Notes: generated by a model from the sequence alone, not told the origin. A stretch of 64,000 nucleotides of DNA from Escherichia coli (GCF_029227855.1 NZ_CP074356.1); one strand, 5' to 3'. Counted from the stretch's first letter, positions 13,275-20,145 are shown. A program made the numbers and translations.

Positions 13275-13400
13275 CAACCAAACGACTCGGGGTGCCCTTC
13301 TTTGTGAAGGCTGAGAAATACCCGTATCACCTGATCTGGATAATGCCAGCGTAGGGAAGTCACGGACCACCAGGTCATTGCTTCTTCACGTTATGGCAGG
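13275..13400 (+). promoter_or_regulatory. TPP riboswitch (THI element) in the thiM leader
   Basis: Conserved thi-box core ..ggggtgcccttc..gtgaaggctgagaaatacccgtatcacctgatctggataatgccagcgtagggaagtc.. immediately upstream of the thiM start; ends approximate. Confidence 0.8.
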
Positions 13401-15058: not shown

Positions 15059-15877
15059 ATGCAGCTAAGAATCACCAGTCGAAAAAAACTCACCGCTTTA
15101 TTATGCGCTCTTAGGCTAATTTCCATCGTTGCGATTCATCCGCGTCAGACGGTGAATTTTTTCTATTCGACAGCAATTCAGATTAAAGACTACATCCACT
15201 TCTACGGTTATCGCCCGGTTAAATCTTTCGCTATTCGCATTCCTGCCAGTTACACCATTCACGGAATAGATGTTTCGCGCTGGCAGGAGCGAATCGACTG
15301 GCAGCGGGTGGCAAAAATGCGCGATAACGGTATTCGCTTGCAATTTGCCTTTATCAAGGCGACGGAAGGCGAAAAGCTGGTGGACCCCTATTTTTCGCGT
15401 AACTGGCAACTAAGCCGCGAAAATGGCCTGCTGCGCGGGGCGTATCATTATTTTTCCCCGTCGGTATCCGCTTCAGTTCAGGCGAGATTATTTCTGCAAA
15501 CGGTGGATTTCTCACAAGGCGATTTCCCTGCCGTGCTGGACGTAGAAGAACGGGGAAAATTATCGGCAAAAGAATTACGCAAGCGGGTAAGTCAGTGGCT
15601 AAAAATGGTCGAAAAAAGTACGGGGAAAAAGCCGATTATTTACTCAGGAGCCGTTTTTTATCACACGAATCTGGCGGGCTTTTTCAATGAATATCCGTGG
15701 TGGGTGGCTCATTACTATCAACGTCGTCCGGACAATGACGGCATGGCCTGGCGCTTCTGGCAGCATTCCGACCGTGGACAGGTAGATGGCATCAATGGTC
15801 CGGTGGATTTTAATGTGTTTAATGGCACGGTGGAGGAGTTGCAGACATTCGTTAATGGGATTAAAGAAACTCCTTAA
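15059..15877 (+). CDS. yegX: Glycoside hydrolase family 25 (lysozyme-like) protein
   Basis: ORF 15050..15877; start placed at MQLRITSRKK (272 aa); GH25-like pattern (..IHGIDVSRWQ..FAFIKATEG..). Confidence 0.7.
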   Translation: MQLRITSRKKLTALLCALRLISIVAIHPRQTVNFFYSTAIQIKDYIHFYGYRPVKSFAIRIPASYTIHGIDVSRWQERIDWQRVAKMRDNGIRLQFAFIKATEGEKLVDPYFSRNWQLSRENGLLRGAYHYFSPSVSASVQARLFLQTVDFSQGDFPAVLDVEERGKLSAKELRKRVSQWLKMVEKSTGKKPIIYSGAVFYHTNLAGFFNEYPWWVAHYYQRRPDNDGMAWRFWQHSDRGQVDGINGPVDFNVFNGTVEELQTFVNGIKETP

Positions 15878-15928
15878 ATAAGAAGCAGTGATATACTCCC
15901 ACCAGACTCCCTGGCAGGAAAAAGACAA

Positions 15929-16675
15929 ATGGAACAAGCGCATACCCAGCTGATTGCCCAACTGAACGAACGTATTTTAGCGGCGGATAACACGCCGCTT
16001 TATATTAAGTTTGCCGAAACGGTAAAAAATGCCGTGCGCAGCGGGGTGCTGGAGCATGGCAATATTTTGCCCGGTGAGCGTGATTTAAGTCAGTTAACCG
16101 GCGTTTCGCGCATTACGGTGCGCAAGGCGATGCAGGCGCTGGAAGAAGAGGGCGTGGTGACGCGTTCGCGTGGTTACGGTACGCAGATCAACAACATCTT
16201 CGAATACTCGTTGAAAGAAGCGCGAGGTTTTTCTCAGCAGGTGGTATTGCGCGGGAAAAAGCCCGATACACTATGGGTTAACAAGCGTGTCGTGAAATGT
16301 CCCGAAGAAGTCGCGCAGCAGCTAGCGGTCGAAGCAGGAAGTAATGTCTTTTTGCTTAAGCGTATTCGCTATGTCGATGAAGAAGCGGTATCAATTGAGG
16401 AATCGTGGGTTCCTGCGCATTTAATTCATGATGTTGATGCCATCGGAATTTCTCTTTATGACTACTTCCGCAGCCAGCACATTTACCCACAACGTACGCG
16501 TTCCCGCGTTAGCGCCCGGATGCCGGATGCCGAGTTTCAGTCACATATTCAGTTAGATAGCAAAATACCGGTGCTGGTGATCAAGCAAGTGGCGCTTGAC
16601 CAACAGCAACAGCCTATTGAGTACAGCATCAGCCACTGTCGCAGCGATCTATACGTTTTTGTGTGCGAGGAGTAG
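15929..16675 (+). CDS. yegW: GntR-family transcriptional regulator (HTH plus UTRA-type effector domain)
   Basis: 248-aa ORF; N-terminal GntR HTH (..LPGERDLSQLTGVSRITVRKAMQAL..). Confidence 0.8.
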   Translation: MEQAHTQLIAQLNERILAADNTPLYIKFAETVKNAVRSGVLEHGNILPGERDLSQLTGVSRITVRKAMQALEEEGVVTRSRGYGTQINNIFEYSLKEARGFSQQVVLRGKKPDTLWVNKRVVKCPEEVAQQLAVEAGSNVFLLKRIRYVDEEAVSIEESWVPAHLIHDVDAIGISLYDYFRSQHIYPQRTRSRVSARMPDAEFQSHIQLDSKIPVLVIKQVALDQQQQPIEYSISHCRSDLYVFVCEE

Positions 16676-17614
16676 TTCCTCGCGCGTTGGCGCACAATCA
16701 CCGCCCCGATGCCCGACAACCCACGACGCCACTGCATTGCCCAGTAATACGGCATCCGCCAGTGGCAGACCAGAGGCTAGCCCGGCAAGTACGCCACCTG
16801 CATGACTGTCGCCCGCCCCAATGGTGTCTACTACTTGCGTTGGAAATGCCGGAATGCAGCCAGAAGCGTCGTTGCTGAAATACCATGCGCCCTCTTTATC
16901 GAGACGAATGATCAACGGCGCGGCAAATTTCTCCTGCCATTGCTTGCCAAGTGTTGTTATCTCTGCGGATAAAGCAAAACGTTCGGCGGCAATCTCAGCC
17001 TCCTGACGATTGAGTGACACTAAAGGTCGACAGGCCATGATCCGCGCCAGCAATGCATCCGGGATATCGCCAATACGTGGGCCAAAATCGATAAACGGCG
17101 TCACGTCTTGCAGCTTTTCCAGCCATTCCACTAATAATTCGCCGCAGGGCGAGGCCAGTTGATAACCGGAAAAATAGAGCAGGCTGCCAGGCGCAACGGT
17201 TAATCGCGCCAGCCACTGGCGATTCCACTGATTTTCCACACCGCTGAATGACATAAAAGTGCGTTCGCCATCCGGCTCAACCAGCGCCAGACACCAGCCG
17301 TTATCACCTTCGGCGTTATCGATCAGGCTGATTAAGCCCTCTTTTGCCATCCGGTTGCGAATAATCTCCGCCCACACGCCCTGACCGAGCGGCAAGGCGT
17401 TACCCGCTTCGATGCCGAGGCGCTTTAACGCCACGGCAATATTCAGTGCGCAGCCGCCAACGTTAACGCTCTGCTGTTTCAGTTCGATATCGCACCCACG
17501 CCAGGGGAGGGCATAAGCGTCGGCGATCACATCAATGACCGCCGCGCCGACGACCATCACCGGCTGACGCGTGGCTAATTCAGGCAGCAGCGTGTGTAAT
17601 CGAGCGCCGCTCAT
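16649..17614 (-). CDS. yegV: PfkB-family carbohydrate/nucleoside kinase
   Basis: 321-aa ORF with the PfkB signature GAGDSHAGGVLAGL; 3' end overlaps the convergent yegW 3' end. Confidence 0.8.
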   Translation of the reverse strand: MSGARLHTLLPELATRQPVMVVGAAVIDVIADAYALPWRGCDIELKQQSVNVGGCALNIAVALKRLGIEAGNALPLGQGVWAEIIRNRMAKEGLISLIDNAEGDNGWCLALVEPDGERTFMSFSGVENQWNRQWLARLTVAPGSLLYFSGYQLASPCGELLVEWLEKLQDVTPFIDFGPRIGDIPDALLARIMACRPLVSLNRQEAEIAAERFALSAEITTLGKQWQEKFAAPLIIRLDKEGAWYFSNDASGCIPAFPTQVVDTIGAGDSHAGGVLAGLASGLPLADAVLLGNAVASWVVGHRGGDCAPTREELLLAHKNV

Positions 17615-18615
17615 ATCGCCTCCCGTTGTTGGCGATACTTCGCCAGCGCCGTGGCATAGCGGTTGAAATCAAGCTGATTTACCGCATCCAGTTCCGCCTT
17701 TAACGCAGGAACGATAGCGTTAATGCCATGCAACGCGCCGCAGATTGCCGTCGCCATAGCACCGATGGTGTCTGTATCGCCGCCAAGGTTAGCGCAGAGG
17801 ACGGCGCAACGGTTCGGATCGGTTTGTGCCAGTTCAACCAGCGCAATGGCGCACGGAACGGACTCAATAGTGCTGGTACCTGCGCCAACGACCTGGTAAA
17901 GCTGTTCGCTGGCGGATTCGGTGCCGTCGGCATTGCGCACAATTTTCAGCGCAATCTCCAGGCGCGCCGCCAGTGAGGCGCTGAAGGTAGTGATGCGTTT
18001 TTGTTGAGCATGTCGCGCAATTGAAGGCAGTGAATCAACAATTGCTGACCAGCTTTCTCCGTCAATGGCACGAGAAATCGCCCATGCGATGACTACCGCC
18101 CCCGCAACCGCCAGATCGGATTTATGTGTCGGGCTGGAGGCCAGCGCCACATCATCAATAAAGGAATCAACATCACGCGCCGGAAGCAAACAACCTAATG
18201 GCGAGACGCGCATCGCTGCGCCGTTGGTCACGCCGTTATTTTCCAGTTCAGCAACGGGTTTACCGTCGCGAATGGCGTTAAGCGCAATCTTCGAGGTCGG
18301 ACCTAGTACGTTTTTGTTAAAGGCGTCGAAACGCAGCGCCCAGTCGAGAATATTACGCCCAATCAGATCCGGATCGATCTTGCCTTTACGTTCCAGTAAC
18401 GCATCCGCCAGACACAGCGCCATCGAGGTATCGTCGGTGAATTCGGCGCGGTTAAAATAACAGGCCGCGTTATTCTCCTTTGGTCCAGGCAGAAAACGGT
18501 CAATCCAGCCAAAGTGTGCTTTAACGCGGCTGCGTGGCCAAAGCTCGGAGGGCATCCCCATCGCATCCCCTAACGCCTGCCCATAAAGAGCACCGAGAAT
18601 ACGTTCTGTTTTCAT
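17611..18615 (-). CDS. yegU: ADP-ribosylglycohydrolase-family protein
   Basis: 334-aa ORF; DraG/ARH-like motifs (..GALYGQALGDAMGMP.., ..GGDTDTIGAMATAI..). Confidence 0.8.
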   Translation of the reverse strand: MKTERILGALYGQALGDAMGMPSELWPRSRVKAHFGWIDRFLPGPKENNAACYFNRAEFTDDTSMALCLADALLERKGKIDPDLIGRNILDWALRFDAFNKNVLGPTSKIALNAIRDGKPVAELENNGVTNGAAMRVSPLGCLLPARDVDSFIDDVALASSPTHKSDLAVAGAVVIAWAISRAIDGESWSAIVDSLPSIARHAQQKRITTFSASLAARLEIALKIVRNADGTESASEQLYQVVGAGTSTIESVPCAIALVELAQTDPNRCAVLCANLGGDTDTIGAMATAICGALHGINAIVPALKAELDAVNQLDFNRYATALAKYRQQREAI

Positions 18616-19889
18616 TTAACTTCCCCTTGTGTCAACGCAATATCGCGATCATCGACCTTGATAGCCGTAATTTCGTTGTCGGATTCGCGGAAAAAAATCA
18701 TGAACAGCACGGCGATAATGGCAATCATCACCGCGCCAAAAGTCCACATCCCGGACCAGTTGAAAGTCAGTCCGTTTACCGGTTCCTGATAAGCGAACAT
18801 CTTTTCCATCATCACACCGCCAAGACGATAGCCGAGCAAACTGCCGAAGCCCTGGCAGCAGAGTGTGATCAGCCCCTGCGCGGCGGTACGCATATGCACG
18901 GGGGCTTTTTTATCGACATAGATGTAAGCGGTAACGTAGTAAAAATCGTAACTTACGCCGTGCAGCAAAATGCCGAGGAACAGTAACGCGTAGGTGAAAT
19001 ATTCATCCGCACTACCGTAAATAAAGAAGCCATAGCGGATCGCAGCGGTGACCAGACCAAGTAATAATACCTTTTTGATACCAAAGCGTTTGGTGAAAAA
19101 CGGCAATGCCAGCATAAAGAAGATTTCAGAGAACTGGCCGAGCGTCATCCAGCCAGTGGCGTTTTTCATACCGACTTCGGTCAGATAACCGTTGGCAAAG
19201 ATGTAATAGAACGCCAGTGGCATCGCAAACAGGAATGAACAGAAGAAAAAGACGAGGAAGTTTTTATCGCGCAGCAGGATCAGCGCATCCAGGCCGAGCA
19301 TGACTTTAATGTCCATTTTGCCGGTGCTTTTTGGCGGCGTGTCGGGCAGGAAAAACGCAAACACACCGAGCAGAGCAGAACTTCCGGCGGTAATCAGCAG
19401 CGGGATGTTAGTCGGAGAGATATCGGCATAACCCAGCATTTGCGGCAAAAATCCACATGCAAGACCGGAGGCAATCCAGCCGATAGTGCCCATCACACGA
19501 ATGCGTGGGAAATCACGCTCCACATCCGGCACGTTGGCAAAAGCGATACTGTTAGTCAGCGCAATGGTCGGCATATAGGTTAGCGAGTAGGCCAGCAGTA
19601 ACGGGAAGAACCCGGCAAAAGTGGTCTGTTGCGCAGCGAAATACATCAGCGCCGCACCAGCGAACATCAATACCGCCAGCACTTTCTGCGCCGAGAAAAA
19701 GCGGTCAGTGATGGAGCCAACCAGAATTGGCGACAGGATCGCCGCAATGGCGGTACAGGCATACGACCAGCCAATTTCTCCGGCACTAAAACCGCTTTTA
19801 CTTAACCACAACCACAATGGCACAAACCACGCGCCCCAGATAAACCATTCAACAAACATCATGAACGACAGCTTTGCTGTTGTTTTCAT
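18612..19889 (-). CDS. yegT: Nucleoside:H+ symporter-family MFS transporter
   Basis: 425-aa polytopic membrane protein; start of yegU overlaps its stop. Confidence 0.8.
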   Translation of the reverse strand: MKTTAKLSFMMFVEWFIWGAWFVPLWLWLSKSGFSAGEIGWSYACTAIAAILSPILVGSITDRFFSAQKVLAVLMFAGAALMYFAAQQTTFAGFFPLLLAYSLTYMPTIALTNSIAFANVPDVERDFPRIRVMGTIGWIASGLACGFLPQMLGYADISPTNIPLLITAGSSALLGVFAFFLPDTPPKSTGKMDIKVMLGLDALILLRDKNFLVFFFCSFLFAMPLAFYYIFANGYLTEVGMKNATGWMTLGQFSEIFFMLALPFFTKRFGIKKVLLLGLVTAAIRYGFFIYGSADEYFTYALLFLGILLHGVSYDFYYVTAYIYVDKKAPVHMRTAAQGLITLCCQGFGSLLGYRLGGVMMEKMFAYQEPVNGLTFNWSGMWTFGAVMIAIIAVLFMIFFRESDNEITAIKVDDRDIALTQGEVK

Positions 19890-20145
19890 CTTTTAATTCC
19901 TTCATGACAGGTAATGTAAGGTACGCGATGACAATACCATTTAATAATACCTTTTAAATACCTTTGCGGTGAAAACTTGACCGCGGTAACATTTTTTCTG
20001 ATGAATCGAGCCAACAGAAAACGCTGAAAAAACATCCAAAAGATGGAAAAACTCGCCTGTAACGATCAGGATTATGATTGCCCGCAAAAGGCGGGCCAGG
20101 ACAATCCATAGCCGATATCCAATCGGAATTTACGGGAGCATAGTA

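Follow-up and report, generated by a model that had tools for sequence, protein, structure and literature searches.

What do the genes yegW and yegTUV of Escherichia coli take up and process, and do they act as one system? The question is raised by positions 15,059 to 19,889 of a 64,000-nucleotide (nt) stretch of E. coli DNA (GCF_029227855.1, NZ_CP074356.1; the whole stretch is the window below), where the gene for a GntR-type repressor converges on three genes for a transporter, a glycohydrolase-fold protein, and a PfkB-type kinase. We judge it reasonably probable that yegW-yegTUV serves, under the control of a repressor, to take up and break down (or salvage) a ribose-containing small molecule other than the canonical nucleosides, and it is best described as a variant of the transporter-kinase-glycosidase theme of nucleoside utilization. 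Gene coordinates follow the window's list of open reading frames (ORFs) and the RefSeq annotation of a 100%-identical strain.

15059-15877, plus strand: yegX, a GH25 muramidase-like gene that adjoins the module and is not a member of it
15929-16675, plus strand: yegW (ggaR), a repressor of the GntR/HutC type, its winged-helix domain N-terminal and its UTRA effector domain C-terminal
16649-17614, minus strand: yegV, a PfkB/ribokinase-family kinase, last gene of the operon
17611-18615, minus strand: yegU, a metal-dependent glycohydrolase of the ADP-ribosylglycohydrolase fold (PF03747), MJ1187-like subfamily
18612-19889, minus strand: yegT, a nucleoside:H+ symporter (NHS)-family permease belonging to the major facilitator superfamily (MFS), first gene of the operon
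16649-16675, no strand assigned: 27 nt shared by the converging coding ends of yegW and yegV, from their coordinates

Genomic coupling of transporter, kinase, and glycosidase is conserved well outside E. coli, as seen in kinase linkage, 13 fusion proteins, and five transporter classes. With YegU as the query, 1.84 billion representative proteins yielded 231 relatives at E ≤ 1e-30, of which the best 150 were inspected for length. Fourteen of these 150 are long (599 to 845 residues), and 13 of the 14 long representatives are fusions of PfkB and ADP_ribosyl_GH domains, seven kinase-first and six hydrolase-first; the fourteenth is a tandem duplication of the ADP-ribosylglycohydrolase (ARH) domain. 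The occurrence of PfkB-ARH fusions in both orders is Rosetta-stone evidence that both enzymes work in one pathway. We also scanned one genome per species (80 loci), counting partners within 5 kb of the YegU homolog and detecting YegV homologs by tblastn or ORF clustering. A YegV homolog is near the YegU homolog in 68 of the 80 loci and in 35 of the 42 at <60% identity, the latter including Lachnospiraceae, Dialister, Sutterella, Bacilli, lactobacilli, Aeromonas, and Chromobacterium; altogether, YegU-YegV loci span Firmicutes, Negativicutes, Betaproteobacteria, and Vibrio. A YegW-like GntR/UTRA regulator is present in 55 of the 80 loci and also occurs in ECF- and ABC-linked metagenomic loci. 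The first-pass annotation had read the cluster as a repressor governing a transporter/glycohydrolase/kinase unit, and that logic is supported by the published regulation described below, the gene adjacency, the fusions, and the travelling regulator; the catabolic role that it envisaged stays a candidate one.

The transporter of the module is swapped by lineage among five classes (NHS-MFS, NCS1, PnuC, ECF, and ABC). YegT, the NHS-MFS type, is found in 33 loci from Enterobacterales, Vibrio, and Gilliamella, an NCS1 carrier in 17 loci, and a PnuC-family carrier in 14 clostridial loci, where the genes for YegU, YegV, and PnuC form tight three-gene operons. Metagenomic contexts include an ARH gene with PfkB, an NCS1 transporter, and a nucleoside phosphorylase; an ECF transporter followed by a PfkB-ARH fusion; the same pair preceded by a GntR/UTRA regulator; and a GntR/UTRA regulator, an ARH-PfkB fusion, and then an ABC transporter. 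The clostridial PnuC-type protein scores 96 bits against a curated PnuC cut-off of 42 (PF04973, 4e-35) and aligns over its full length with the Neisseria mucosa nicotinamide-riboside carrier 4QTN (137 bits), including the WxxWxxxN motif. Pnu carriers are facilitators, and a cytoplasmic kinase traps the vitamin that they transport (PMC5749112). The 14 clostridial loci recall such trapping systems (PnuC with NadR, PnuT with thiamine kinase) in coupling a PnuC-family facilitator to a YegV-like kinase in an operon. They differ in having a PfkB-type kinase with a glycohydrolase after it, the riboside being predicted to be dismantled and not built into a cofactor; the E. coli module differs further in using an NHS-MFS carrier.

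Pfam places YegU in ADP_ribosyl_GH (PF03747, 3.2e-66, full-length domain), and its closest solved relatives are MJ1187 (1T5J), the nearest and itself uncharacterized, and ARH3. Residues D34, E41, T76, D77, D78, D314, D316, and T317 of ARH3, the last three of which we take to be metal ligands, align with D17, E24, T60, D61, D62, D280, D282, and T283 of YegU. Seven of these eight catalytic or metal positions are invariant or at least 90% conserved among 40 family members, E24 being the majority residue at the eighth, and YegU carries both metal-binding motifs of PF03747 members, TDD and GGDTDT, along with the catalytic Glu (E24). In ARH3, D34, E41, T76, D77, and D78 are essential by mutagenesis (PMC8319183). 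This conservation makes it very likely that YegU is an active two-metal glycohydrolase. The adenine site tells a different story from the metal site: the adenine-stacking F143 and Y149 of ARH3 align with N126 and V129 of YegU, and ARH3 S148 lies in a three-residue insertion that is absent from the YegU family. Because the residues that hold adenine in ARH3 are not kept, the alignment argues for a YegU substrate lacking an ADP moiety and disfavors ADP-glucose and ADP-ribosyl conjugates. By equivalog-level score and by its predicted adenine site, YegU also falls outside the protein ADP-ribosylhydrolases, scoring 79 bits against DraG (TIGR02662, cut-off 337) and 69 bits against Tri1 (NF041672, cut-off 490). 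It thus shares its fold and its metal site with ARH3, DraG, and ARH1 but differs from them in family-model score and adenine stacking, and in genomes it stands beside a kinase and importers instead of ADP-ribosyltransferases.

YegV belongs to PfkB (PF00294, 4.9e-56), and its translation contains the NRQE (NxxE) and DTIGAGD (DTxGAGD) motifs of the PfkB/ribokinase superfamily. Its best NCBIfam model is ribokinase (TIGR02152), at 83 bits against a cut-off of 299.65, and since this score is so far below the curated cut-off, YegV is not RbsK; it reaches 19 bits against pseudouridine kinase PsuK (NF007355), where the cut-off is 540. YegT matches the NCBIfam model "nucleoside permease" (TIGR00889) over its full length at 654 bits, above the cut-off of 446, as well as Nuc_H_symport (PF03825, 1.8e-183). 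With YegX and YegW, described below, Pfam thus upheld each of the five domain assignments made in the first-pass annotation. A crystal structure of YegT is available (PDB 8ZOJ), and its authors detected no binding of uridine, adenosine, cytidine, or guanosine by isothermal titration calorimetry (PMC11979927), while another group found no transport of uridine, cytidine, xanthosine, or gemcitabine (PMC11241209). In a docking model of NupG, the ribose contacts R136, T140, and E264 are identical in YegT; the base contacts Q225, N228, and Y318 are replaced, and Q261 is common to both (PMC8042404).

The closest known likeness is the E. coli pseudouridine utilization system, psuK (yeiC), psuG (yeiN), and psuT (yeiM), which follows the same logic in combining a PfkB kinase and a glycosidase with a transporter of nucleoside type. 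PsuG splits pseudouridine-5'-phosphate into ribose-5-phosphate and the base, and in some organisms the pseudouridine kinase and glycosidase are fused. The parts differ in kind: the glycosidase fold is IndA-like in PsuG and ARH (PF03747) in YegU, the transporter is a CNT protein in PsuT and NHS-MFS in YegT, and YegV shows the low score against the pseudouridine-kinase model given above. PsuT and YegT are alike as the two E. coli carriers of nucleoside families without detected transport of canonical nucleosides (PMC11241209).

The regulatory half of the yegW-yegTUV story is already known from a 2024 publication, and for this reason the first-pass interpretation, sound as it is, is only partly new. 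YegW contains a GntR domain (PF00392, residues 29 to 87, 7.3e-16) and a UTRA domain (PF07702, residues 108 to 242, 5.1e-36), aligns over its full length with the PhnF and HutC NCBIfam models at scores below their cut-offs, and is by its winged-helix and UTRA domains a GntR-family protein of the HutC subfamily. Saito et al. renamed it GgaR (PMC10819704). By chromatin immunoprecipitation (ChIP)-chip, they found a single genome-wide peak at the fbaB/yegT spacer together with a weaker second site within yegT, and in electrophoretic mobility shift assays GgaR bound the 190-bp stretch upstream of yegT and, when more protein was added, nt 571 to 869 of the ORF. One 3.3-kb yegTUV transcript was seen in Northern blots only in the absence of YegW, and quantitative reverse transcription-PCR gave about 30-fold derepression of yegTUV upon yegW deletion (PMC10819704). 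ADP-glucose at 10 to 100 μM freed GgaR from DNA in vitro, ADP and glucose being ineffective; the yegW deletion raised glycogen 2- to 3-fold with poor growth in glucose minimal medium, and high glucose raised yegTUV mRNA 3-fold (PMC10819704). An earlier screen on ADP-glucose medium had found glycogen deficiency upon deletion of yegV (PMC6195507). The assays of YegW binding, ligand release, and yegTUV control that the first-pass annotation had called for were therefore already in print, without a promoter reporter or a nucleoside or riboside induction screen, and the single target, single mRNA, and derepression bear out the co-regulation by YegW that it had assumed (PMC10819704). Its further suggestion of co-translation stands in part: 4-nt ATGA stop/start overlaps are present at both yegT/yegU and yegU/yegV, each preceded by a purine-rich stretch, and co-translation is what these overlaps suggest, co-transcription alone having been demonstrated. 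YegW resembles other HutC-subfamily repressors (NagR, TreR, FrlR, PhnF) in its GntR and UTRA domains, local repression of a single operon, and release by an effector, and differs in a predicted operator of direct GGTAT repeats with inverted copies.

This operator and the elements around it are as follows.

19910-19965, minus strand: candidate operator O1, in which GGTAT stands three times in direct orientation (AAAGGTATTTAAAAGGTATTATTAAATGGTAT) ahead of GTACC and TACC, both inverted
19064-19082, minus strand: candidate secondary operator O2 within the yegT ORF (nt 808-826), GGTATCAAAAAGGTATTAT
19944-19973, minus strand: candidate sigma-70-like yegTUV promoter, -35 TTCACC, 18-nt spacer, -10 TATTAT
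19972-19995, no strand assigned: CRP-like imperfect palindrome TGTTA-N6-TCAAG, an inverted repeat just upstream of the -35

We propose, on conservation and occurrence statistics, that the GGTAT-repeat motif is the GgaR operator at both O1 and O2, a prediction that would account for both published binding sites. O1 is the sole cluster of at least three such pentamers within 45 nt in the window, and GGTAT-N6-GGTATTAT occurs there in exactly two copies (19944-19962 in O1, and 19064-19082, which is O2) against 0.03 expected; it is the coincidence of these two copies with the two published sites that leads us to the proposal. Candidate O1 lies inside the 190-bp probe bound by GgaR, and candidate O2 inside the bound ORF fragment and beneath the second ChIP peak (PMC10819704). 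The yegT upstream regions examined from Enterobacterales share, with minor differences, the arrangement AAAGGTATTTAAAAGGTATTATTnAnTGGTAT-N9-GTACC(T)TACC, and Vibrio has a version GGTAT..GGTAT..ATACC..GTACC; it is not evident in a few yegT upstream regions, such as those of Gilliamella and Hafnia. O1 overlaps the -10 hexamer of the candidate promoter. That promoter matches the consensus at 9 of 12 positions, sites of this quality being as numerous as chance predicts, and carries weight because its position overlaps the operator repeats; in promoter and terminator scans generally, counts equaled chance expectation, so that this promoter hit alone was kept, and no credible terminator was assigned.

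The CRP-like palindrome is conserved as GTTAnnnnGnTCAA in enterobacterial upstream regions, and a CRP site in the fbaB/yegT spacer has been reported from genomic systematic evolution of ligands by exponential enrichment (Genomic-SELEX) (PMC3105977); we infer that the two are the same. Anaerobic induction of yegT has been described in Shigella (PMC4229854), and an FNR ChIP peak has been reported at the E. coli yegT promoter. These clues hint at catabolite and anaerobic control of yegT on top of YegW.

Assembled into a mechanism, these observations would run as follows. As published experiments show, GgaR, sitting on the GGTAT-repeat region that overlaps the yegT promoter and on the weaker internal site, keeps yegTUV mRNA off, and an effector frees it from the DNA (PMC10819704). 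YegT would import a riboside, recognizing ribose as NupG does and a different aglycone; YegV would phosphorylate the riboside, probably at the ribose 5'-OH, which would also trap it in the cell; and YegU, as a two-metal ARH-fold enzyme, would cleave the C1' bond to yield ribose-5-phosphate and the free aglycone. The true inducer would probably be the phosphorylated intermediate or a close analogue, ADP-glucose being a mimic, and what ADP-glucose may mimic is a GgaR effector containing ribose-5-phosphate. The substrate is most likely an unusual ribose-linked small molecule from the environment. A pyridinium or nicotinamide-riboside-like compound is our leading guess, a doubtful one in itself, made because of the PnuC-linked loci and because ARH3 can split alpha-NAD+ between nicotinamide and ribose (PMC8319183). 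The substrate may also be an alpha-riboside, since the characterized ARH enzymes are alpha-specific.

Several observations weigh against this mechanism. The characterized ARH enzymes cleave alpha-linked ADP-ribose conjugates, and ordinary nucleosides are beta. Twelve of the 80 loci have a YegU homolog without a PfkB gene, five of them being enterobacterial loci with YegU and YegW homologs only, which fits either a hydrolase acting on an unphosphorylated substrate or paralogs with another job. When 1306 neighboring ORFs were clustered, no conserved aglycone-processing enzyme emerged beyond YegU, YegV, YegW, and the transporters, the occasional neighbors (PNP_UDP_1, phosphopentomutase-like, DeoC, and GMP-reductase-like proteins) being non-recurrent. 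An Rfam scan of 14 loci without a YegW-like regulator found no riboswitch upstream of the U-V operons, only signal recognition particle RNA and a distant thiamine pyrophosphate (TPP) element. The loss of the adenine residues in YegU is read from an alignment that crosses a loop. Substrate, phosphorylation site, and reaction order are all our deductions, the literature searched containing no enzymatic assay of YegU or YegV, and the published effector and phenotypes concern ADP-glucose and glycogen only, both of which the mechanism explains indirectly.

The order of the two reactions is the point at which the nearest rival departs. YegT could import a riboside that YegU splits to free ribose and aglycone, with YegV as a dedicated ribokinase, in parallel to Rih and RbsK; the ribokinase model is indeed the best family match of YegV, YegU homologs do occur without PfkB, and fusions in both orders leave the reaction order unfixed. 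Yet E. coli already has RbsK, and YegV scores far below the ribokinase cut-off (83 versus 300 bits). Substrates of the ARH family carry a phosphate at the ribose 5 position, and the closest catabolic precedent, PsuK and then PsuG, phosphorylates first. The kinase that normally partners a PnuC-type facilitator, moreover, takes the transported molecule itself as its substrate (PMC5749112). Because Pnu-type carriers need a kinase for their cargo, ARH substrates are ribose-5-phosphate derivatives, and the pseudouridine precedent begins with phosphorylation, we favor the kinase-first order as the likelier of the two and regard cleavage before phosphorylation as possible, if on the unlikely side. 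The published GgaR model, taken literally, would instead have YegW sense ADP-glucose and YegT, YegU, and YegV import, make, or convert it, as a device for glycogen accumulation. Release of GgaR by ADP-glucose and not by ADP or glucose, the extra glycogen of the yegW deletion, the 3-fold response of yegTUV to high glucose (PMC10819704), and the glycogen deficiency of the yegV deletion (PMC6195507) all speak for it. The effector test covered three compounds only, however, and glucose induction is 3-fold against 30-fold for full derepression. The PnuC, NCS1, and ECF carriers of orthologous modules handle small vitamins, bases, and ribosides, not nucleotide sugars; YegU has not kept the adenine-stacking residues of ARH3; and the loci examined, with their partly annotated neighborhoods, showed no glg genes close to the module. 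Overexpression of a kinase and a phosphoribosyl hydrolase could disturb nucleotide pools, with the glycogen and slow-growth phenotypes as side effects; lowered AMP, an inhibitor of GlgC, could for example underlie the glycogen phenotype. We therefore consider the literal ADP-glucose model improbable.

In a third rival, YegU would act on macromolecules as DraG, ARH1, or Tri1 do, removing ADP-ribose from a protein or nucleic acid in signaling or conflict. Its family membership, its weak NCBIfam similarity to DraG and Tri1, and one PHROG family annotated as ADP-ribosylglycohydrolase point that way, but the partners of YegU are a sugar kinase (fusions included), small-molecule importers, and a metabolite-sensing repressor, and the adenine-binding positions of ARH3 are not kept in it. 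The neighborhoods, which are partly annotated, showed no ADP-ribosyltransferase, PADLOC returned nothing, and we hold this role to be very unlikely. Equally remote is a part in the pathway for yegX, whose GH25 product might free, from peptidoglycan or another glycan, the compound that is imported. YegX is a Glyco_hydro_25 protein (Pfam, 1.9e-54), and the gene adjoins yegW in E. coli. Its relatives, however, are phage endolysins (PHROG endolysin families, 2e-46), a YegX homolog accompanies the module in one of the 80 loci, that of E. coli itself, and GgaR does not bind near yegX (PMC10819704). In at least 14 other enterobacterial genomes scanned, which lack the insertion, the gap between thiD and yegW is 36 to 80 nt; in E. 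coli it is 935 nt and holds yegX. The gene is an E. coli-specific insertion between thiD and yegW, a neighbor and not a module member, and because of this insertion and the 1/80 linkage we place it outside the module; its inclusion in the cluster's function in the first-pass annotation was not borne out.

Returning to the kinase-first reading of YegV and YegU, a bolder version, to which we give little credence, is that the pair forms a widespread, uncharacterized route by which gut and other host-associated bacteria dismantle a pyridinium or otherwise unusual riboside through phosphorylation and then ARH-type cleavage; candidate substrates are nicotinamide riboside, nicotinic-acid riboside, or an alpha-riboside. 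If the nicotinamide-riboside version were true, YegU would be the nicotinamide mononucleotide (NMN) glycohydrolase activity of E. coli, whose gene was "not yet identified" as of 2005 (PMC1249556). If the route exists, YegU would be the first enzyme of the ARH fold with an assigned part in the catabolism of small-molecule nutrients; the literature searched contains no work tying PF03747 to PfkB, PnuC, or nucleoside operons. Among the y-genes that E. coli K-12 still has, four are yegW, yegT, yegU, and yegV. Almost all E. coli genomes carry the module (of 5426 complete genomes, 5416 cover at least 80% of a 6-kb query taken around the locus, which places it in the core genome, and one strain is at 100% identity), and it is re-tooled in Lachnospiraceae, Dialister, Sutterella, Vibrio, lactobacilli, and the bee-gut Gilliamella. 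From this distribution, the compound consumed is probably common in host-associated habitats. Knowing its identity would give a large ADP-ribosylglycohydrolase branch its metabolic role and would test both whether ADP-glucose is the true GgaR signal and whether the glycogen phenotype is direct or indirect. New here are the YegU-YegV fusions in both orders, the swapping of five transporter classes including PnuC, the operator motif, the loss of adenine residues in YegU, and the exclusion of yegX.

Some loci of the scan depart from the usual arrangement. In Brenneria, Edwardsiella, and Serratia (L038, L041, L043, L044, and L052), a YegU homolog of 62 to 66% identity stands with a YegW-like regulator of 36 to 47% identity, with neither YegV nor YegT nearby, an arrangement that may be a paralogous system with different partners. 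Two ECF-linked loci without PfkB (L086, 3663-4529, and L090, 9153-9965) have a protein of the PurM/AIR-synthase superfamily (PF00586, 1.7e-07, with weak similarity to SelD and ThiL) between the regulator or S-component and the YegU homolog; it may be a non-orthologous replacement of the kinase. Beside the V-U pair in L081 (2682-5249) and L091 (6732-8876) is a protein of 714 to 855 amino acids, whose GWDTDCN motif and long extra C-terminal region suggest a second, larger ARH-like enzyme in the cluster; L011 has a second ARH gene. Downstream of a PfkB-ARH fusion in L008 (10589-13875) are genes for a phosphopentomutase-like metalloenzyme, an NCS1 carrier, and a DeoC-family aldolase, and in L005 the NCS1 carrier precedes a nucleoside phosphorylase of the PNP/UDP family. 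A pathway that yields ribose would suit these enzymes of pentose-phosphate and nucleoside metabolism, which are not recurrent.

Around the E. coli module, the RefSeq annotation and the ORF list place thiMD immediately upstream of yegX and yegW, and fbaB divergent from yegT. A TPP riboswitch upstream of thiM (13278-13374) is annotated in the identical RefSeq record (L001, 4779-4875). The adjacency of thiD and yegW is kept in many Enterobacteriaceae, with no functional link evident. Composition across 13 to 21.5 kb of the window showed no anomaly of the kind expected of foreign DNA, and an anti-phage defense system was rejected after PADLOC defense-protein models gave zero matches for all five proteins. 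Near end-to-end PHROG matches (the YegX C terminus to phrog_23704, 1e-81; YegU and YegV to phrog_6572, 9e-100, and phrog_15334, 1e-141) are probably near-identical copies swept into prophage-derived protein sets and do not imply phage origin. Starts in the window's ORF list differ from those of RefSeq for yegX (9 nt upstream, 15050 versus 15059) and fbaB (72 nt, 20074 versus 20146). The yegV-yegW pair is among the candidate excludons of a 2025 RNA-seq survey (PMC12288877), and antisense interference between the repressor gene yegW and its target operon through the 27-nt overlap is conceivable.

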